Virus record (IMG/VR): IMGVR_UViG_3300022894_000002
Span: 1 to 36,489 of that record
Reading direction: 5' to 3' (one strand)
Length of the DNA: 36,489 bases
From: a virus
Lineage: Duplodnaviria; Heunggongvirae; Uroviricota; Caudoviricetes; Crassvirales
Of this stretch, positions 2,461 through 20,996 are shown in pieces (positions within the stretch are counted from its first letter, which is position 1; each line of letters starts with the position of its first letter). The notes beneath the pieces are model-generated. The model saw only the letters and a list, made by a program, of their open reading frames with translations, made no database searches and was not told the DNA's origin. A program made the position numbers and the translations under genes.

Positions 2461-2691
2461 ATGTTTACAAAAACAAATATAATAACAACATTAAATAATG
2501 CTACTAATAAAGCATTAGATATTTTTAATAAAACTATGACTGAGTTAAGTAGGATTAATACTTTAGCTCAAGAAAAAATAGATAGTAATCATGAAGAAAT
2601 AGGTAAATTAAATTTAGAAAATGAAGATCTAAATTCTTTATTAACTAAAAATGATAATACAATTAAGAGAATTAAAGGAATTATTGAATAA
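2461..2691 (+). CDS. Hypothetical 76-aa coiled-coil protein
   Basis: Heptad-like helical sequence; TAATG-coupled to the next gene. Confidence 0.7.
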   Translation: MFTKTNIITTLNNATNKALDIFNKTMTELSRINTLAQEKIDSNHEEIGKLNLENEDLNSLLTKNDNTIKRIKGIIE

Positions 2692-3533
2692 TGGAAATTA
2701 TAAAATATCCAGATAATACTTCTTATGTAAAAGTTAAGGAGTTTTTACCTGAAACAACATTTAGATTAAACAGTTATGAAGATTTATGGCATTTAAATCA
2801 ATATGTAGATGCTAGTTATAATTTTTGTAATACAAAATCAACTATTATTATACCTAATTTAATAGATGCTCAATCAGATAGGAGATTTGGTATTGGTGAA
2901 TCAAGTGGTTTAAAATTAGTATGTGATTTTTTAAATCAAATGAATGCTAATTTTAAAATATTTCATCCTCATAATCAAGAAGTAGTTGAAGCTTTAATAA
3001 ATAATTTAGAAATTATTGATAATGAGAAATTTATTAGGGAAGTTTTTTCAGAACTTTTAGAAGATAAAAGATATGATTTTGATTCAGAAGAATTAGAAAA
3101 TCAATTAATTTTAATGTCTTCTGATGCTGGTGGATTTAAACCTTTATCTAAACTTTGTGACAAACTTAGTTGGGAAGGTGAAATGTATTCTGCTTCTAAA
3201 GCTAGAAGTTGGGATGAAAAAAATGGTACTAAATTTATACAACAAATAGATAGAACAGATTTTAAAGGTAAAGACATACTTATAATTGATGATATTTGTG
3301 TATATGGAGGAACTTTTAAAGGTTTATCTAAATTACTTAAAGAAAGAAATTGTGGTAAATTATATTTAGCTGTTAGTCACATGACTGTACAAAATTTAGG
3401 AGAAGATTCTGTAACTAATTATTTTGATAGAGTATTTACAACTAATAGTAAATATGATTTTTATCAATATATAAATTGGAGTTCTGTAATTGAAAAAGAA
3501 ATTAAAAACTTAGAAATTATAAAATTATTTTAA
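2691..3533 (+). CDS. prs: Ribose-phosphate pyrophosphokinase-like protein (candidate Adps, ADPR-PP synthetase of NARP1)
   Basis: AQSDRRF loop, DAGG, PRPP-binding loop LIIDDICVYGGTF and KLYLAVSH. Lies next to a NAMPT-like gene. Confidence 0.85.
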   Translation: MEIIKYPDNTSYVKVKEFLPETTFRLNSYEDLWHLNQYVDASYNFCNTKSTIIIPNLIDAQSDRRFGIGESSGLKLVCDFLNQMNANFKIFHPHNQEVVEALINNLEIIDNEKFIREVFSELLEDKRYDFDSEELENQLILMSSDAGGFKPLSKLCDKLSWEGEMYSASKARSWDEKNGTKFIQQIDRTDFKGKDILIIDDICVYGGTFKGLSKLLKERNCGKLYLAVSHMTVQNLGEDSVTNYFDRVFTTNSKYDFYQYINWSSVIEKEIKNLEIIKLF

Positions 3534-3578
3534 ATGAAAGTATTACCAATATTAAACAGTGATAATTTATTAAAATAA
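3534..3578 (+). pseudogene. Dead remnant of the original 5' end of the NAMPT-like gene (MKVLPILNSDNLLK*)
   Basis: ATG immediately follows the prs stop. The first 10 codons match 4136-4165 (MRVLPILNAD) at 8/10 aa and 23/30 nt, then the frame diverges and stops at 3576-3578. Confidence 0.85.
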
Positions 3579-3579
3579 A

Positions 3580-3611
3580 TTTGTTTTATTGGATACATTT
3601 TATTATATTTG
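3580..3611 (+). promoter_or_regulatory. Bacteroidota sigma-A-type promoter (-33 TTTG / -7 TAnnTTTG)
   Basis: TTTG at 3580-3583, 20-nt spacer, TATATTTG at 3604-3611: exact consensus and spacing, 18 nt upstream of ATG 3630. Confidence 0.75.
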
Positions 3612-3629
3612 TATAAAATATATAAATGT

Positions 3630-4133
3630 ATGGAAGAAATTAAAACAAGAAAATGTTGTAAATGCTTAGAAATTAAGCTTTTAACTAAAGATTATTTTAC
3701 AGTTGATAAATGTGATAAAACAGGATTTACTTATTCATGTAAAATATGTAGAAGAATTAAACAAAAAGAGTGGAAATTAAATAATCCTGAAAAAATTAAA
3801 GCTTTAAATGATAAAAACGCTGCTAAAAGAAAGCTTTTCTATGATTCTCCAGAAGGTAAAATAAGCTCAAGAAGAGCACATTTAAAAAGAATGTATAACA
3901 TTACATTAGAAGAATATACTTTAAAATTAAAAGAACAAAATAATAAATGTAAAATTTGTTGTAGTGAAAATAGTTTTGATAGATATGGTGTATTAGCAGT
4001 GGACCATTGTCATACTACAGGAAACATTAGAGGATTACTTTGCTATAAATGCAATGTAGGATTAGGAAATTTTAATGATAATCAAGAATTATTAAAAAAA
4101 GCAATAAATTATTTAGAACAATATAAAAAATAA
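3630..4133 (+). CDS. Endonuclease VII-family (HNH-fold) homing endonuclease with N-terminal Cys4 Zn-finger
   Basis: CCKC...CKIC at the N-terminus; YNITLEEY...QNNKCKIC...LAVDHCHTTGNIRGLLCYKCNVGLG...LLKKAINYL. Start moved from TTG 3609, which lies inside the promoter -7 box, to the in-frame ATG 3630. Confidence 0.88.
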   Translation: MEEIKTRKCCKCLEIKLLTKDYFTVDKCDKTGFTYSCKICRRIKQKEWKLNNPEKIKALNDKNAAKRKLFYDSPEGKISSRRAHLKRMYNITLEEYTLKLKEQNNKCKICCSENSFDRYGVLAVDHCHTTGNIRGLLCYKCNVGLGNFNDNQELLKKAINYLEQYKK

Positions 4134-4135
4134 AT

Positions 4136-5638
4136 ATGAGAGTATTACCTATTTTAAATGCAGATAGTTACAAAATGCACCATTTTCAAATGTACCCAGA
4201 AGGTATGACTAAATTATATTCTAATATGACTCCTAGAAGTTATAACAGATTAGGATGTACTAAAAGTGTATGGTTTGGATTACAATATTACATTAAAGAA
4301 TATCTAATTAATCAATGGAATGAGTTATTCTTTAATAAACCTTTAGAAGATGTATTAAAAGAATATAAAAGATTTCATAAGTATTTTAGTTTTACTGATA
4401 TACCAACTGAACATATTGAAAAATTACATAAATTAGGTTATTTACCTTTAGAAATTAAAGCTTTAGAGGAAGGTAGTTTAGTTTTAGCAAGAATACCTTA
4501 TTATACAATAACTAATACTCATTCAGATCATGCTTGGTTAGTTAATTTTTTAGAAACTCAAATGAGTACAGTTATTTGGGATTTGACAACTAATGCTACT
4601 ATTAGTAGAATGTATAGAGAGTTACTTAATAAATATGCTTTAGAAACTACTGAAAGTACTGATGGAGTTCAATGGCAAGGACATGATTTTAGTCAAAGAG
4701 GAAGAAGTTCTGTTGAAAGTACTTTTAATCAAGCAGGTCATTTATTAAGTTTTACAGGTTCAGATACTATTCCAGCAGTATTAATGTTAGAAGAATATTA
4801 TGGAGGTAATATGGAAACTGAATTAATAGCTTCTAGTGTACCAGCAACTGAACATTCAGTTATGACTAGTTATGGTAAAGAAGATGAATTAGGTGCTTTT
4901 AAAAGATTATTACAACAATTTCCTACAGGAATATTATCAATAGTTAGTGATAGTTTTGATTTATGGAAAGTATGTACAGAGTATTTACCAACTTTAAAAG
5001 AACAAATATTAGCTAGAAATGGTAAATTAGTAATTAGACCTGATTCTGGAGATCCTGTAGATATTATTTGTGGAGATACTTTTAATATATATGGAGAATA
5101 TTTATCTCATGTAGATAAAGTTAATCCTTCATGTAAAGGAGTAATTGAACTTCTTTGGGATACATTTGGTGGAACTGTAAATAACCAAGGCTATAAAGTA
5201 TTAGATCCTCATATTGGAGCTATATATGGAGATTCTATAACTTTAGAAAGAGCTAAACAAATATGTGAAAAACTTAAAGCTAAAGGATTTGCTTCTACTA
5301 ATATTGTATTGGGGATAGGTTCTTATACTTTTAATTGTAATACTAGAGATTCATTAGGTATAGCAGTTAAATCTACTTATTGTGAAATTACTTCCCCAGT
5401 AACATCTACACAAGTAGAATCAAGAGAGATATTTAAAGATCCTATTACTGATGATGGTACTAAAAAGTCTGCTAAAGGTTTATTATGTGTAACTTTAGAT
5501 GATAATTTAGAAATGTGTTTGTTAGATCAAGTTAATTGGGAAACTGAGAAAAAAGGTTTATTACAAACAGTATTTTTAAATGGAAAATTAATTAAAGAAA
5601 CTAATTTACAAGAGATTAGAAATAGATTAAATAGTTAA
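4136..5638 (+). CDS. nadV: Nicotinamide phosphoribosyltransferase-like protein (candidate Namat of NARP1)
   Basis: NAMPT motifs in order: DSYK, HDFSQRG, GSDT, ATEHS, SIVSDSFD, IRPDSGDP, IYGDSIT, RDSLG.AVKST, KKSAKGLL. Confidence 0.92.
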   Translation: MRVLPILNADSYKMHHFQMYPEGMTKLYSNMTPRSYNRLGCTKSVWFGLQYYIKEYLINQWNELFFNKPLEDVLKEYKRFHKYFSFTDIPTEHIEKLHKLGYLPLEIKALEEGSLVLARIPYYTITNTHSDHAWLVNFLETQMSTVIWDLTTNATISRMYRELLNKYALETTESTDGVQWQGHDFSQRGRSSVESTFNQAGHLLSFTGSDTIPAVLMLEEYYGGNMETELIASSVPATEHSVMTSYGKEDELGAFKRLLQQFPTGILSIVSDSFDLWKVCTEYLPTLKEQILARNGKLVIRPDSGDPVDIICGDTFNIYGEYLSHVDKVNPSCKGVIELLWDTFGGTVNNQGYKVLDPHIGAIYGDSITLERAKQICEKLKAKGFASTNIVLGIGSYTFNCNTRDSLGIAVKSTYCEITSPVTSTQVESREIFKDPITDDGTKKSAKGLLCVTLDDNLEMCLLDQVNWETEKKGLLQTVFLNGKLIKETNLQEIRNRLNS

Positions 5639-5639
5639 T

Positions 5640-5915
5640 ATGAAAGCAACTAAAAAACCAATAACAATAGATTATTTTCCAATAGAAGATTATAATAATG
5701 AAGAATTACATAATTGGGTACAATCATTTGGTGATAAATTTGAAGACAAATTCTTTGAATTTGAAGCTGAAGGATTTATTCATTTGGAAGTAAATACATT
5801 AGAAGGTAGTTCTTATGAAATTACTACTGATGATGTTATAATTAGAGGTATTAAAGGTGAATATTATCCATGTAAAAAAGATGTATTTGAATTAACTTAT
5901 GATAAAATAGATTAA
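5640..5915 (+). CDS. Conserved small phage protein of unknown function (KKP...TLEG...IIRGIKGEYYPCKKDVFELTY family)
   Basis: The C-terminal motif matches a widespread phage family (TLEG...IIKGVKGEFYPCKPDIF..TY). Last gene of the + operon. Confidence 0.75.
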   Translation: MKATKKPITIDYFPIEDYNNEELHNWVQSFGDKFEDKFFEFEAEGFIHLEVNTLEGSSYEITTDDVIIRGIKGEYYPCKKDVFELTYDKID

Positions 5916-5954
5916 AAATTTTATATGATTAGTTTGTGCTTGCATATAAAAATT

Positions 5955-5986
5955 AAACCCTGAATTTTTTAAGTTCAGGGTTTTTT
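5955..5986. terminator. Bidirectional intrinsic terminator between convergent gene blocks
   Basis: AAACCCTGAA (5955-5964) pairs with TTCAGGGTTT (5974-5983). A T-run follows on + (5981-5986) and a T-rich tract follows on -. Confidence 0.85.
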
Positions 5987-5987
5987 A

Positions 5988-8900
5988 TTAGTTTCTTTGT
6001 TCTTCTAAACTAACATCTTTTCTTCCAATTTTATATAATTCAAAAGCTGGTTTAGCTAATGGAGTTATATCAGCAAATTCTTTAAGAATTCTATTATGTC
6101 CTTTAGAAGATCCTTTTTTAATTGTATAATCTCCTGTATATAAAACTTTAGGAATTATATAAGTAGCTTGAATAATATCTCCAATTGTTTTAGATAAAGG
6201 AATTGCATTTTTACCTAATTGATTGATTTGTTCTGGGCTATAAAAGAAAGTTAAATCCCCTGATGCTCTATCTAATAAAGTTAAAGCTAATTTAATCTGA
6301 GGTAATCTTCTTCTTAATTTATCTTTATCATCATCTCCTCCATGTAAAAAAGCATATAACATAGTTAATGTTCCTATTGATATTAATTCAATAGCCATTT
6401 TTCTCATGTTATAAACTTCAGATTCAGTTAATTTACCTTCTTTTAATAATTTTTTAGCATTAATTAAAGGTAATAATAAATTTTCAAAAGCTTGTTTAGG
6501 ATTTTTCCAATTCTTTAATACTAACCGGTTAAATGTTTTATAAGATCCCTCTATATCAGCTTGAAGTCTATTATCATACTGTTTAGTATTAAATCTTGCT
6601 TCATAAGCAGCTGGAACCCATTTTCTAAATTGTGATATTAATCTAAATAAAACATTTTGTTGAAGTGTTGCAGCTTCTTTAACTGAATATCTACCATGAA
6701 TTTTTTGATTTAATCTTTGAACTTTATCAGATAATTGTTGTTTTTCCTTTTTATCAGCATTTTTATATTTATCAGTTAATTCTCCATTAGAAGTTAAATA
6801 ACTTTCTTTAATCATTACAGCTAATAGAGTTCTTGATTGTAAGAATTTTTCACCAGATGTTTGCATAGAATACATTATCTCTTGAATTCTATCAGTAGTT
6901 AATTTTTTAGTACCAATTTCTTCAATGTCTGATTTAAGTGAATAATCCATTAATTCTTGTAAAGGATTTAATTCCTCTAATAATTTATTCATTACAGAAT
7001 CTCTATCAAAATTTTGTTTAAAAAATATTTTAGAAGCCTGATGTAATTGTTTAGTATTAAAAAATTGTCCACCAATTGCTTCAATAGTATTTGAAATATC
7101 TCCAAATATCCAGTTAGTTAAAGACGTTATTGGACTTAATGAAATTCTTAAAAGTGAATTATATTTAAGTAACAAATCAATAGCTTTAGTACCATCAACT
7201 ACAGTTTGAACTGTATTACCATTTTCATCAGTAGTTTCACTTTTAACATATTGAAATTGTTCTAACTTCATATTACCCTTAACTTGCATATCTATAACTT
7301 TATCAATCATATTATACAAATTAGTTTTTCTTCCAGGAATAGTTAATTTAGGATTATTAGATGTCTTAAATTGCCTTTCAATATAATTACCATTAACAAT
7401 CTTATAAGTTAAGCTTTCTTGTAATAATCTTAATTTAGGTAATATATCAGACATTTCTTTCTGATTGTAAGCAAATTTACTAAACTCAAATAAACTAGTT
7501 CCTAAATCAGAAGATTTTTCAGAAGCTGGAATATTTTTATGATATTCTAATGGTACTACATCAGATAAATTCTCTTCTTCAAAACCTTCTTTAATAATTC
7601 TTTCTTTAATTATAGATAAAGATTTAATTTTAGATTTTAAATCAGTTTTTCTTATATTTGGAATAAATGATTTACCTAAGTCTATTGGAAGATCTTTTTG
7701 AGCTTCTTCCATCTTAGATACATAAAAATCATAAAATTGTTTTAATTCTGGTGTACTTTGAATTTTATTCCAATTAGGATTTTCTTTACCATCATCAAAA
7801 TAAGGTTGAACTAATTTTAAAGTATTATCACTTTCTTGAACAAATAATTTATAAGTATTTTCTAAACTAGCCCCATTTTTTTTAGCATAATCATTTAATA
7901 ATTTAACCTTTCTTTCAATTTCATTTTTAGTTCTTTTAGTAAAAGTTTCTACTTTATTTTGAACACTTTTAATTAATGAACCAATTGTTCTACCAATATA
8001 ATTAGCTAAATCTGATAAAGATCCTGTTCCTTCTATCCTTTTAGATATATCAGTATCTTGATTTTCTATATCTTCTAAAGTAGGTTTAACTTTCTCAGTA
8101 GCAAACTCTTGAACTTCTTCTACTTTTAATTCATCAATAAAAGGTTTTAATCTATTTAATAAATCAGCACTATCATCTCTTAATTTATCAAAGTTACTAA
8201 AAGTATTAATAACATCTATTGAATGTTCTATATTTTTAGCAGTATCTTTAGCTGAACCTTCTTCTAATTCAATTATAAATTCTTCTACTTTAGATAAAGT
8301 TTCTTCACCTAATTCTCTAAACAAATCTCTATTTTGTAAAGTTTTAGCAGTATTAAATTTTTCTTTTAATTCATCTAATTCTTTTTCTAATTCTTCATAT
8401 TTGTTAGTACCTTCTTGTAATTTATTTAAGTTATTAGTTAATCTTTTAATTCTATTAGAGAAGTATATTTCTTGTTTAGTAAAAGCTGATTCTTGTTTTT
8501 CTTCATTTTTATTAGATTTTTTAAATTGAATTTCTTCTAAATTTTTTAATTGATTATTATATTTAGTATTAATTTCATTTATTTTATTAAGTTCTTTTTG
8601 AGTTAATATATAAATTTGTTCTGGTTCAAATACTAAATATTCTATTTGACCATCTATATAAGGTAATTCTACACCATCACCGAGTAATCCCTCTTTTTCT
8701 AAACCTTCTATAATACTTCTATAAACATATTCTTTATGATGTCTTTCTGGAGTATCTTGTTGAATATCTATTTCAGTTAATTCTTGTATATTTAAAATTA
8801 CAGGATGTAAATTTTTACCATATAAATTAGCAATTCTCTTAGATGGTGTAAATGAAAATCCTAATTGTGAAATAGGAGCATTAAAATTTGAAGCTCTTTT

Positions 8901-20900: not shown

Positions 20901-20996
20901 ATCAGTGGCTCCTTGTATAGGAGTTTTATCTAAATATTGTTCATATAAAGATTTTTTTTTATTATCTTCAAATAATTTATCTAATAATTTACCCAT
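5988..20996 (-). CDS. 5002-aa virion-packaged RNA polymerase polyprotein (crAss-like vRNAP) with helicase, ART-like and two zincin domains
   Basis: GGDYDIDK catalytic motif (D2613-D2617, nt 13146-13160), preceded by YRIPTQG, DAQGWIT and GTQFRKL. HEAFH at H1319, GKGGTGKT at G3275, HEFSH at H3858, YHGS at H4020. Gly/Ala-rich hydrophobic stretches near the N-terminus. Follows the cargo and muzzle genes. Confidence 0.9.
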   Translation of the reverse strand: MGKLLDKLFEDNKKKSLYEQYLDKTPIQGATDIQLGQYGVGDSQYDTDITPGNVSELESIRGQRQSRTAKVANAIPRLISKVGTEVAKTPAYLYAMGEAVATDKTLAETLDNAWLNTLEGLDQKTKQEFAIYKPKSVTEGNLWDNITSTSFWTDEGVDGAGFLIAMLAPGMALRGANIAGNLSKVGVGANTAKNIELGAGALMNSALESAAEAKGLVDQLKPQLMKLVEEGKITQEEANQRLGEAGKNSFLQNMALIAGPNFLMQKNLLGRFIPSKTALSEVTDEAGNLLKPIQLQGKELANQYAKEIGTNLFSEGFIEEGGQFAIENYNKKLALGQTNSDFVKGILESYGEALTSTEGQKSIFLGSFLGGLGSGASNIGKAKKDFEGKSQLYDLMQSNFNGFDKSISDLYTKDKEGNLTSELNPVKVKNFMQDIVKEHLSSQLKDTYATLDNKEAYDYISNQEFTKFALPYLQQEGGLQLLNKHIDQLSKKLIDNEKNQRGVDTTLDEVKYITNLKLKGQKLQKVVNSINSTLKVDIPAETPLQQAKVNEFTNRLKSTAIQETSKQLFLNDRINNLNLELVELEMGLSKDIPQNKIEADKIKNQIEKYNNELKSSIEKYNKIFDKEEQKKAFNISNEVEEQEEKVSEKETKEAIKTDVKQFAERIKNGEVLSTPEDQEFYTNNSKEIEKELQRLKKEDLTKPSESNIDEENINERAIITTEEKESKKALDPFKSENGWDGITFLINGEKYGIKSVDDNKYTLKNIKNNKEVVLTSENLLQFASRDITPSQDRFYTYVRNTENVAGHKFLPVTKKNNPELYEELLKLQDDELDFNNEVARQHDKIDSIYLVLLDSSGNQIKVDNKPLFTYMTRPERIDKSEILSEDKAKLVQLREEILALKKGTNQTLIITDKSKGTPQFEPKVNGERQSNPLIGTLYDNKNEIKLELVTQEAGKDYGFLSNGQIANPGKLYALKGKIAIDLIPRKLNEQEVDKLTELLEKRLKGESNISKEIEKLIFFGIGKKGINNYTVAVKEDKLYLGKDIVLTLDIFNPTLVKAYLLNSGKTVHINNKYGFKDGYIDILGNKHDSYQDYLVLGDNPLFGTDLKPKSEIQFRNQYLIYNPELKSDNLVTSQPEVNTESKEEEIKPFPTEASNLDPRKSEIEKRRQEDISNIIEGSNSDDSWYELKVDHSKRNLVKEKLDGKYWNYNDLVTKINAKYDAELAALEEENKGPYTKNAEIKIRKPRSKEGDFDKKNRLASVVKDKSELTQQEINWFKNNFPNIPLEKVKGLIDEQAFGQFLSSGKVLLSDEAPTGTLYHEAFHTVTQLYLTDKEVNNLYNEAKERTELKDNLDIEELLAEDFAEYKKTGKILKDSPVRNTLFRKLINFIKDLLNLPAKSIQDIYRRLDKGFYKNKKRTNRNQFSKLNKALKDKSEKFTKDLLDGMDAIFFKTLFLNNKTVIDSFQYVDAALNRVHDVITDLYEDVNNDYNYTISEELQDYVYDNWEIISNKWLERMNSLGANLKDFDLTKDYQENIIEEDNLPSKDENESVDSDENIKERSGEAYQEANLTSAKSKMFNSSKFLIRSLVQKDSKNNDVLSELGLSLTVQFDKTYNYLLKELTGLGWNYNNYYNKISELTKVKPEFNQILTRLLAPGQAVTMEQIMLQNQFVQDFNKNKATSYITLIEGDKIYQVDATQQATVDRIKDKWQSNLRYNSKQNVEGRLIFDYSKLKGLGNIKYLEGLGFTFSKETIKELEDNKEFSDAVTAIRNYITSNNGDVTTFFSGKELSGRLSTLAQLEAEFTPDTVELSYINSENKTVYSIGYNNFLSIIKNTINRVSNLTELYQELPHLKSVTTEGSLWLNKMFDKDGNKREGVQINLNLQDGVKNKDNEDAASTRKLSIGDKLIQDINSTLLNGLTNYIRASDKATEHTLNLSGYGKNQKLPVSIDELKDGFDSNTLKEIFRGYFKSEFKRIALFKINNLGKNIDQYQKAGNKWTIFSSILNSENKKFLENEIDELKLQDLDSIQLNNELDLTAQAFSETLDKDVIKFFEGYLFEQNKQLEENRINLTQGISSELKQYNLDQLVRALIVTDMINSIEQTKLFIGDMAFYKDLFKRTSSASGTKESCRVDNELHDWLNNNNKRLDKKLADGKINVSIFNDSTQQSDYIDEYIDSLVSSGINPELAKEQMKAYSEMDEGDAQGWITIDEFREFSIRLGKWDKYKEDIFDKLQNNKELTPGELSYFLPLKAQYFGPQDYKGLYAPAYHKYSLMPLIPQLVKGRNLEVLLKNMTENQIGYALFKTGSKVGTPVNSKGEANNFYTDKNNGEINTSNWTKQVISYKYLGLQQKSSEPKEKVIFGTQFRKLLFSNLYESGLVNEGFTGSKQLFEEYNKIIDDLIKVEKDKLIKELGLNPNNYTSEDVTKLVKLLQQEAKDRALPDNLIESLQSELIDGKYLLKYKFDSMVNKPKIDSMLMAIINSRLIRQKINGDALVQGASSGFEKTGNRKAGSNSSLKFYTNKGENGTTTHAECMVAMNKNYKPLLDKYGSLEALNQAIKDNKVDKRLLQLVGYRIPTQGLNSIDMLEIKEFLPETSGTLIVLPTEIVAKSGGDYDIDKMNIFRPKMDKEGNYIQTPENRIIEIATQILSNPTNFNALITPNSTKILTDLVDEIRWIEHKNSKPKYTGDITQYKKEVKDELNNIKYTEQLKLTTKTKQFQKFMLAKDMIGIAAIQNTHHIISQLVGLTLNKTYYIVDKKKPGQLIEKNRVISFEHNRGNNNTIDLGKTSDVEGKNRISEVISQIINATVDAAKDPFLFDLNMTLETLSTYTYLIRIGVPFDTVVYFMKQPIITKYLTELSVNQSMFLGSSNYVAKEQAKAIVKNEYKTNELIDISKVYNSEELKSYLIKENQQSEEFKANQLHILDKFLEYQDQSSMLSDAIKSTNYDTKGLGKNYGTSILQKDLEDKVFKDNFVNGIDRIKNNTFIGAFDQVDFSLSAYGQFYDIYNNKDLSNTVQNLINKINPFGDENKIKLRTLIENDLIQYITQNYGYNNITELQDKLFKTESVAKELLRIKNNPSNPDEIRIGKNMLIEELYPLINQSKQEKDNIKIYSRRYDTFKANQLTESFNELRQLDPVLAKNIMDVGIIQSGLNNSPITYLGLIPYDYYNELVKQSFLNFNKKNGAEDLYKFQALFLRENPKGIPKQGWIYGKNYDVNSKEDYVVIPETPVEVIKPVIANKYELFPGVFANKDQEIAIDKINNFLNSSDQEFLLAGKGGTGKTSIVNKAISEFKGNIVGATVADEARGILQESMKGKTTKTIASLLGLVPDFRQDSGELYFRVRNSEEEKEFRNNFKRDPIESADLVIIDESSMITNEILDLLLKLKRPTAKLIFMGDNHQLPPIGDINSPIFERLENTDNYSELTIRMRQKEESPILPVTDIYADNIDLLEQGKGVKKPTFTRIEKFDESTNQGVKYIKNNKELITEFVKDLKEGVNSKHVITVVARNETARLVSDAIRNELLDNPSEDYQIGEIIRVNQPYIVDKEIVLANGFKGKIIERENFKLLDKYEGYRLTVEFDSVDSKGNPIKAKKIIETLSQKDLPNFKKILSELGKDIKSRGLDFKSEKRAFATELYPLKEKIVDIGYNYAITSHKVQGSTYEITYVMEDDIMSFPDNTNGLTINRMMYTAISRPKTKLVIYSPSQEFTKEEYKSNPDIQYKKLEVQAIPLREDTKALYKEYNLLTNDGKIKIVPDTEKTKTWVKTLNQSPYYSFRLRNTPGGLRILIYPKQSNQLDLQFNREEGETEISKEVMQTLLDKLKDKLGIDYELTNESGDPYYSNNKVVIPTGNLTLETPLHEFSHGLFDSLEKFNPKLFNKLIKDILATEEGKQIEETVERLYPEDDNTNKQLKEIGVRALTEVAKKNINPKTGKPFLEVIKRLFYALKQMFRSIFGKDIKITDLNENTTLQELADMLTIGTGKIDLILINSREQIEINRTQELEKIVTDIFPNTQVKQILYHGSNENIEIFDKKKRASNFNAPISQLGFSFTPSKRIANLYGKNLHPVILNIQELTEIDIQQDTPERHHKEYVYRSIIEGLEKEGLLGDGVELPYIDGQIEYLVFEPEQIYILTQKELNKINEINTKYNNQLKNLEEIQFKKSNKNEEKQESAFTKQEIYFSNRIKRLTNNLNKLQEGTNKYEELEKELDELKEKFNTAKTLQNRDLFRELGEETLSKVEEFIIELEEGSAKDTAKNIEHSIDVINTFSNFDKLRDDSADLLNRLKPFIDELKVEEVQEFATEKVKPTLEDIENQDTDISKRIEGTGSLSDLANYIGRTIGSLIKSVQNKVETFTKRTKNEIERKVKLLNDYAKKNGASLENTYKLFVQESDNTLKLVQPYFDDGKENPNWNKIQSTPELKQFYDFYVSKMEEAQKDLPIDLGKSFIPNIRKTDLKSKIKSLSIIKERIIKEGFEEENLSDVVPLEYHKNIPASEKSSDLGTSLFEFSKFAYNQKEMSDILPKLRLLQESLTYKIVNGNYIERQFKTSNNPKLTIPGRKTNLYNMIDKVIDMQVKGNMKLEQFQYVKSETTDENGNTVQTVVDGTKAIDLLLKYNSLLRISLSPITSLTNWIFGDISNTIEAIGGQFFNTKQLHQASKIFFKQNFDRDSVMNKLLEELNPLQELMDYSLKSDIEEIGTKKLTTDRIQEIMYSMQTSGEKFLQSRTLLAVMIKESYLTSNGELTDKYKNADKKEKQQLSDKVQRLNQKIHGRYSVKEAATLQQNVLFRLISQFRKWVPAAYEARFNTKQYDNRLQADIEGSYKTFNRLVLKNWKNPKQAFENLLLPLINAKKLLKEGKLTESEVYNMRKMAIELISIGTLTMLYAFLHGGDDDKDKLRRRLPQIKLALTLLDRASGDLTFFYSPEQINQLGKNAIPLSKTIGDIIQATYIIPKVLYTGDYTIKKGSSKGHNRILKEFADITPLAKPAFELYKIGRKDVSLEEQRN
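8600..8990 (-). other. ADP-ribosyltransferase-like (ART-PolyVal-type) domain within the giant ORF
   Basis: LYHGS...F...LGFSFTPS..IA..YG...VILNI...DGV...IEYLVFEPEQIYIL, the pattern of polyvalent-protein ART domains. Confidence 0.72.
9150..9540 (-). other. Zincin-like metallopeptidase domain 2 (HEFSH) within the giant ORF
   Basis: ETPLHEFSHGLF (9411-9425) followed by KEIGVRAL and FLEVIKRLFYALKQMF, similar in layout to domain 1. Confidence 0.65.
9895..11290 (-). other. SF1B Dda/RecD-like helicase domain within the giant ORF
   Basis: Q motif DQEIAI, I GKGGTGKT (11151-11174), Ib KTIASLLG, II IIDESSM, III GDNHQLPPI, IV LTIRMRQ, V YAITSHKVQGSTY, VI MYTAISRP. Confidence 0.9.
12400..14700 (-). other. 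Two-barrel RNA polymerase catalytic region within the giant ORF (boundaries approximate)
   Basis: DYDID corresponds to the DFDID motif of Cellulophaga phage phi14:2 gp66. YRIPTQ lies about 35-40 aa upstream. Confidence 0.85.
16780..17160 (-). other. Zincin-like metallopeptidase domain 1 (HEAFH) within the giant ORF
   Basis: GTLYHEAFHTV (HEAFH at 17028-17042) followed by IEELLAEDFAEY, which supplies a candidate third Glu ligand. Confidence 0.78.

Follow-up and report, generated by a model that had tools for sequence, protein, structure and literature searches.

Positions ~3564–4180 of the window very probably constitute a mobile, intron-less homing cassette composed of a promoter and hairpin, the gene for an Endo VII-type nuclease, and a diverged copy of codons 1–15 of the Namat gene into which it has inserted. 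The window, that is, the whole stretch of DNA analysed (36,489 nucleotides), covers the initial 36 kb of a virus record of 103 kb (G000), which is 74% complete. The original prediction of a homing element carrying a diverged gene start is largely supported by an empty allele on contig L112, by a foreign tract shared with locus L115 and by the fact that no intron is evident. The features concerned, all on the + strand, are the following.

2691–3533, +, prs-like gene, probably the Adps gene of NARP1 (PHROG 619, E 2e-34; PF00156)
3534–3578, +, stub ORF of 14 codons, the final four of which are junk
3534–3563, +, native Namat codons 1–10, left as the stub (27/30 nt to the intact start in L112, with the upstream prs end collinear with L112)
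3580–3611, +, Bacteroidota-type promoter motif TTTG, 20-nt spacer, TAnnTTTG (pattern scan)
3593–3631, +, predicted RNA hairpin covering the nuclease start codon, its 5' arm overlapping the -7 promoter box
3630–4133, +, free-standing Endo VII-motif (DHHRN, F-CphI-like) nuclease of 167 aa (PF02945, E 4e-22)
4136–4180, +, replacement start, codons 1–15, brought with the nuclease (comparison with L112 and L115)
4136–5638, +, intact Namat/Nampt-family gene of 500 aa, its body from codon 16 native to the lineage

The stop codon of the prs-like gene (3531–3533) abuts the ATG of the stub at 3534 (TAA/ATG), and the intact gene starts 602 nt 3' of that ATG. These coordinates bear out the earlier claim that a stub directly after the prs stop repeats the gene start: the two copies are identical at 23/30 nt and 8/10 aa, with five identical, three synonymous and two non-synonymous codons. 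The nucleotide figure alone is weak, because one control gene start also reached 23/30 nt elsewhere in this window of 26% GC. When the window is translated in all six frames, only the stub matches the working start at 8/10 residues, the runner-up reaching 5/10, and the likeness is non-random on the strength of this peptide match, the TAA/ATG position and the relatives described below. Elsewhere in G000 the native target region is not repeated (best 17/24). Whole-gene GC gave no signal of foreign origin, and GC3 is raised in codons 1–15 only, which are too few codons. Stubs of this kind are missed by annotation pipelines.

The closest homologue found of the Namat protein (P0121, 85% amino acid identity) is encoded on a syntenic contig, L112, without the nuclease at this site. 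There the original prs 3' end runs with the same TAA/ATG junction into an intact start, ILNSDSYKQFH, which is exactly the nuclease-less allele, with prs joined to a stub-like intact start, that had been proposed as a check. Identity to this L112 start is 27/30 nt for the stub but 22/30 for the working start of the window; being the closer of the two, the stub represents the native 5' end. L112 is the single close nuclease-less sister that was available and, at 85%, it is not near-identical. The working gene differs from it at 16/45 nt in codons 1–15, while the 85 codons that follow have 17/255 differences (Fisher p 9e-7), and identity resumes at His16. By this comparison the foreign tract of the working gene is codons 1–15 (4136–4180) only, a sharp 45 nt.

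Working codons 9–15 are identical at 20/21 nt to the nuclease-linked start of L115, as compared with 10/21 for L112, although the gene body is 94% identical (281/300) to L112 and 78% (235/303) to L115, and the gene-body tree groups the window with L112 at 98% local support. We therefore conclude that the start travelled with the nuclease. Where the native sequence specifies Gln14-Phe15 the working start has Met-His, in addition to many silent changes. The residue after DSYK is Met in the window, L114 and L115, that is, in all three nuclease-bearing alleles of the DSYK clade; among 111 readable best homologues position 14 is Gln in 101 and Met in two, the L115 protein and the L286 allele. The latter (L286, 3001–3045) lacks the nuclease, encodes Ala9 and Met14 in Namat, and in its first 45 nt diverges locally from its neighbour L288 (34/45 vs 36–41/45 further on). 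Conversion followed by loss of the nuclease may have given rise to it, or it may be naturally resistant.

The earlier claim that the break falls at the Asp of DSYK is correct for the window, where the Asp10 break is real, while comparison within the family moves the true exchange boundary to codons 13–15. In the best-preserved stubs (L115, L026, L284 and Lbo-JY46) homology includes the Tyr or Lys of DxYK and continues for as many as two codons more, and in the window the downstream junction precedes His16; together these place the exchange point at codons 13–15, and the longer stub homology in relatives rules out Asp10 as a family-wide boundary. The Asp10 break of the window stub is probably later decay, a 9–10 nt deletion of native codons 11–14. 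On alignment to the L115 stub a gap opens right after the Asp codon and the match resumes on shared cassette-edge sequence; the multiple alignment backs this deletion, and pairwise aligners are ambiguous and place the gap less cleanly. With the boundary at 13–15, an uninterrupted allele built by joining 3534–3563 to 4166 onward would keep foreign codons 11–15 and is thus the wrong target substrate; it may be uncuttable.

A protein search recovered about 20 full-length relatives of the nuclease, at 46–70% identity, which together with the window gave 13 independent readable loci: the window, L026, L114, L115, L199, L200, L279, L280, L281, L282, L284, L285 and the cultured phage Lbo-JY46 (L289). 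In all 13 the clade nuclease lies directly 5' of a Namat/Nampt gene; of 175 Endo VII loci outside the clade that are more distant, each followed by 300 nt or more of readable sequence, none shows this arrangement. The informative clade loci were obtained by exact-protein look-ups; when IMG/VR was queried with the nuclease on its own or with its alignment, all the Endo VII genes that came back were distant ones, none of them directly upstream of Namat. Viewed from the other side, the clade nuclease is upstream of one of the 80 Namat loci retrieved via the enzyme. Its absence at the site in L112, L286 and L288 makes its presence at this one site optional.

Clean ATG-led stubs occur in seven of these loci (the window, L026, L115, L282, L284, L285 and L289), decayed ones in three (L114, L199 and L200) and a trace only in L281, with no recognisable stub evident in L279 or L280. 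Each clean stub resembles the gene lineage of its own locus, not that of the window. Summed over the seven clean loci, stub and new start differ by 31 synonymous and 16 non-synonymous codons, and since these differences are mostly synonymous both copies must have diverged as working genes. The nuclease ORF overlaps the new start in L026, L114, L279 and L282. In L026 an extra ORF of 106 aa (2152–2472) lies between stub and nuclease, its ATG overlapping the stub stop codon. In several loci the last codons of the stub pair with a downstream inverted copy to form a hairpin (L199, 826–855; L200, 2914–2944; L281, 2940–2981; L114, 1986–2020; L289, 2510–2545); similar inverted repeats were seen by eye in L284 and L285 and are not evident in the window. 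These hairpins could serve in read-through attenuation, or could be an insertion scar or a vestigial P1-like helix.

In the nuclease tree, a quick tree in which support for the clade is just 84% SH-aLRT, the window, L114 and L115 form a well-supported group (97). The Namat tree (FastTree, residues after His16) is unrooted; on it the nuclease label needs eight changes, at least six of them forced by well-supported branches. This incongruence fits repeated invasion of several Namat lineages, loss, or both. Because the Namat tree has no root, we claim no donor lineage. The cassette of Lbo-JY46 (PP438436.1, 16079–18182; nuclease XAI97302.1) is whole, with a clean stub of 16 codons. The listed host of this phage is a cyanobacterium, yet its cassette has the Bacteroidota-type TAnnTTTG promoter box.

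Between the two copies in the window lie the promoter and nuclease already noted, namely a Bacteroidota-type promoter motif and a PF02945 nuclease gene. The nuclease has an N-terminal CxxC...CxxC zinc finger and a C-terminal catalytic domain, the Pfam match covering residues 84–163 of 167, that is, the C-terminal half. D125, H126, H128, R134 and N142 and the zinc cysteines C107/C110 and C138/C141 are invariant in an alignment of 23 clade members, and identity to F-CphI is 38.5% over 96% of the length. A C-terminal motif is the mark of the endonuclease clade, not the resolvase clade (PMC6083498). On the invariant D-H-H-R-N residues and CxxC pairs, the C-terminal motif and the F-CphI match we therefore place the protein in the DHHRN endonuclease clade. 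Its catalytic residues are intact, and it would presumably cleave the nuclease-less allele site-specifically.

TTTG, a 20-nt spacer and TAnnTTTG is the Bacteroidota housekeeping promoter consensus. Its -7 box is found again ahead of most members of the clade, with a TAnnTTTG/A element 12–33 nt 5' of the nuclease ATG in eight other cassettes. A sigma-70 promoter scan was at chance level (8 found vs 8.8 expected) and no terminator was found. The hairpin would probably hide the nuclease start in read-through transcripts: in the window its prediction is weak (z -2.4 for a 56-nt segment chosen post hoc, weakening to -1.35 over a wider segment), and equivalent hairpins are predicted in L115, L282, L199, L200 and L281 (whole-leader z -2.6 to -4.8). 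T4 homing endonucleases have a late promoter within such a start-sequestering hairpin (PMC2988022).

The Namat-family protein scores 508 bits to the Namat of SPbetaL1 (9W5X) as against 229 to mammalian NAMPT, and in alignment its Asp10 and Tyr12 correspond to Asp13 and Tyr15 of Namat, which bind nicotinamide (PMC12774641). Its gene adjoins the prs-like gene. No PF01467 (Nmnat) match is present in G000, which is 74% complete. A Prs-like gene beside a Nampt-like gene closest to SPbetaL1 Namat is what this locus has in common with NARP1 (bioRxiv 10.1101/2024.02.11.579819; PMC12774641; PMC13586617). It differs in the selectivity-clamp helix (residues 395–405; window 5318–5350), which otherwise agrees with the motif and has Tyr at position 3, but at position 7 has Cys instead of the consensus aromatic; this Cys is common to the window, L112, L286 and L288, with Tyr in 60 of 84 surveyed alleles. 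The prs-like protein ends, as far as can be judged from sequence alone, ~25 aa beyond the final segment that could be matched to PRPS chains, which is consistent with the loss in Adps of the PRPS C-terminal alpha11-alpha12 module. The target is probably the Namat of NARP1, and by that assignment it is likely an anti-defence gene. As a NARP1 pair, the two enzymes would make NAD+ from ADPR and nicotinamide and rescue the phage from NAD-depleting defence.

Immediately downstream of Namat (5640–5915) is a gene of 91 aa belonging to PHROG 419, which has homologues close to prs and Namat in L026, L037 and L066. Farther on, the minus strand (5988–20996) carries an ORF of 5002 aa, a size typical of crAss-like virion RNA polymerase genes, with an apparent helicase Walker A segment inside.

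L112 has undergone what appears to be the mirror-image event (4245–6000), with a LAGLIDADG-like gene (5075–5842) lodged in the 3' end of prs. On this contig prs ends in a foreign replacement tail, and its original 3' end is stranded downstream at 5839–6000, still abutting the Namat ATG and ~80% identical at the nucleotide level to the prs end of the window. In other phages further insertions interrupt Namat again at points farther downstream (L114, 2876–3425; L281, 4345–5144; L115, 2126–2916; L078, 4194–5308), one of which has a LAGLIDADG gene. The Namat gene thus looks like a hotspot for mobile nucleases; the phage NAD-rebuilding operon seems to draw selfish nucleases, and the replacement of the prs 3' end in L112 adds to the signs of this.

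The anatomy of the cassette (a native stub, a foreign 45-nt tract, fidelity of the clade to one site, and horizontal spread) follows from sequence comparison, and suggests the following course of homing. During mixed infection the nuclease would cut a nuclease-less Namat in or near the DxYK-x-x-H codons (~codons 9–16), the most conserved part of the front of Namat. Repair off the donor genome would copy the cassette into the recipient, whose own first ~14 codons would remain upstream as a dead stub, and the donor start would join the recipient gene body just before the conserved His16. Namat would stay a single intact ORF with no need of splicing, so that the gene would still work. The cassette would spare itself by having the target split at the junction and the downstream copy altered (Gln14-Phe15 to Met-His, with the silent changes). 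The promoter inside a start-hiding hairpin probably delays translation of the nuclease, as in T4 homing endonucleases. Free-standing nucleases of phages mostly cleave a long way from the gene that encodes them (PMC2988022), so that the position of the cassette does not alone fix where the cut is made.

That the respelled tract gives immunity to its own nuclease is, on present comparisons, somewhat probable. It has a competitor in which the cassette homes as described, protection comes from the split site or from a cut elsewhere in the operon, and the respelling is just the divergence of an old donor allele; we rate this as a distinct possibility, though an unlikely one. It has a precedent in MobA, where polymorphisms alone gave no protection from nicking (bioRxiv 10.1101/2022.08.31.505936). 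The DGYK codons of L199, moreover, are identical in the remnant and the new start, so recoding of these codons cannot be a general protection; and nuclease-bearing alleles differ from one another in the residue that follows the Lys, the same residues being found in nuclease-less alleles of other clades. Against this, the replacement start and the gene body rebuild a contiguous target-like sequence, and codons 1–15 must differ if the cut is made there; Met14, rare among the homologues (two Met, 101/111 Gln), is present in all three nuclease-bearing DSYK-clade alleles. It is doubtful, although conceivable, that the nuclease acts as a phage-against-phage weapon which cuts the nicotinamide-pocket codons in the Namat of a co-infecting rival. 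If so, its best payoff would be in hosts with NAD-depleting immunity, and the altered, active-site-proximal Met14-His15 segment would have spread through phages as a natural home-and-rescue drive.

Three further explanations do without a homing cassette of this kind. Local tandem duplication at insertion (a target-site duplication), with the upstream copy decaying neutrally and no foreign start involved, would account for two similar copies flanking the nuclease, and stub and working start do share the sub-lineage ILN where the nuclease-linked starts of L114 and L115 have VLL. However, it is the upstream copy and not the working one that lies nearer the sister allele (27 vs 22 of 30 nt), the differences are mostly synonymous, and the L115-like codons 9–15 of the working start, at 20/21 nt to a distant nuclease-bearing phage, contradict it; we consider it very improbable. 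A group I intron, possibly degenerate, which splices the stub to the gene body has a negligible likelihood. DHHRN nucleases are often intron-encoded or intron-associated (PMC6083498), and in several relatives the DxYK codons of the stub pair with a downstream complement in a loosely P1-like manner. An Rfam search, however, gave no match up to E 5, and with 66 nt from codon 10 to the nuclease ATG and 2 nt from the nuclease stop to the new ATG there is no room for a ribozyme core. Namat has its own complete start, which the nuclease ORF overlaps in four relatives, and on Rfam, spacing and the complete start we reject the intron. Lastly, the Endo VII protein might be a Holliday-junction resolvase or another housekeeping nuclease whose position is incidental, it being the only PF02945 gene in a 74% complete genome. 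This is scarcely credible for a protein whose motif is C-terminal, like that of the endonuclease clade (PMC6083498), and which is absent at the site in the sister genome, found at one of 80 Namat loci and tied to one insertion site across divergent phages; a resolvase role was rejected on the motif, the optional presence and the single site.

Taking the region as a homing cassette, a clade of Endo VII-type nucleases acquires a predicted target, which sequence comparison narrows to a few codons. With an empty allele and a travelling tract, the locus documents a nuclease inside a conserved gene which has neither intron, intein nor split protein. In the literature covered, which took in few subscription journals, no paper came to light that describes either an Endo VII clade dedicated to Namat or a homing endonuclease at the Nampt gene of a crAss-like phage. 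Because the cassette, clean stub included, is present in cultured Lbo-JY46, this phage opens cleavage, immunity and homing to direct test.

In atp6 and rps3, too, there are elements that replace the C-terminus and pair a nuclease gene with a duplicated terminal piece of the host gene. The free-standing GIY-YIG genes of fungal mitochondrial atp9 are alike in this respect (PMC7487136); all these are organellar elements of other nuclease families. Homing by free-standing genes, nucleases of the DHHRN family and elements that bring along a replacement for part of their target are already known, the last from MobA and fungal atp9; since the general principle is known, the present cassette extends homing biology and does not overturn it. 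With intronless homing by the Seg and Mob nucleases of T4 (PMC2988022) it shares a free-standing mobile nuclease, a resistant flank that is co-converted and a promoter in a start-sequestering hairpin. The genes of the T4 enzymes lie mostly between other genes, and cleavage takes place hundreds to thousands of bp away, whereas the cassette is located within its presumed target, where the gene start is now present in duplicate. F-CphI of cyanophage S-PM2 (PMC6083498) is likewise free-standing, has a C-terminal D-H-H-R-N motif and lies beside a conserved target gene; its own target is psbA, guarded by a group I intron (collaborative homing), whereas the cassette has no intron, presumably targets Namat and supplies a replacement gene start. 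HomeR engineered gene drives (PMC7968924) offer only an analogy in that they cut an important gene and insert a drive with a replacement piece, and from these the cassette differs in being natural, phage-borne and protein-guided. MobA of T4-like gene 39/60 (bioRxiv 10.1101/2022.08.31.505936) is also a free-standing nuclease inside a conserved gene, with a diverged homologous region that bears a new start and takes the place of the target segment. It is an HNH enzyme, its gene 39/60 yields two needed chains with tails, 55–75 nt have been deleted, and immunity involves a 50-nt ribosomal bypass. The window cassette, in contrast, has an Endo VII nuclease and a continuous ORF of 500 codons specifying one chain, and it keeps the old start as a stub.
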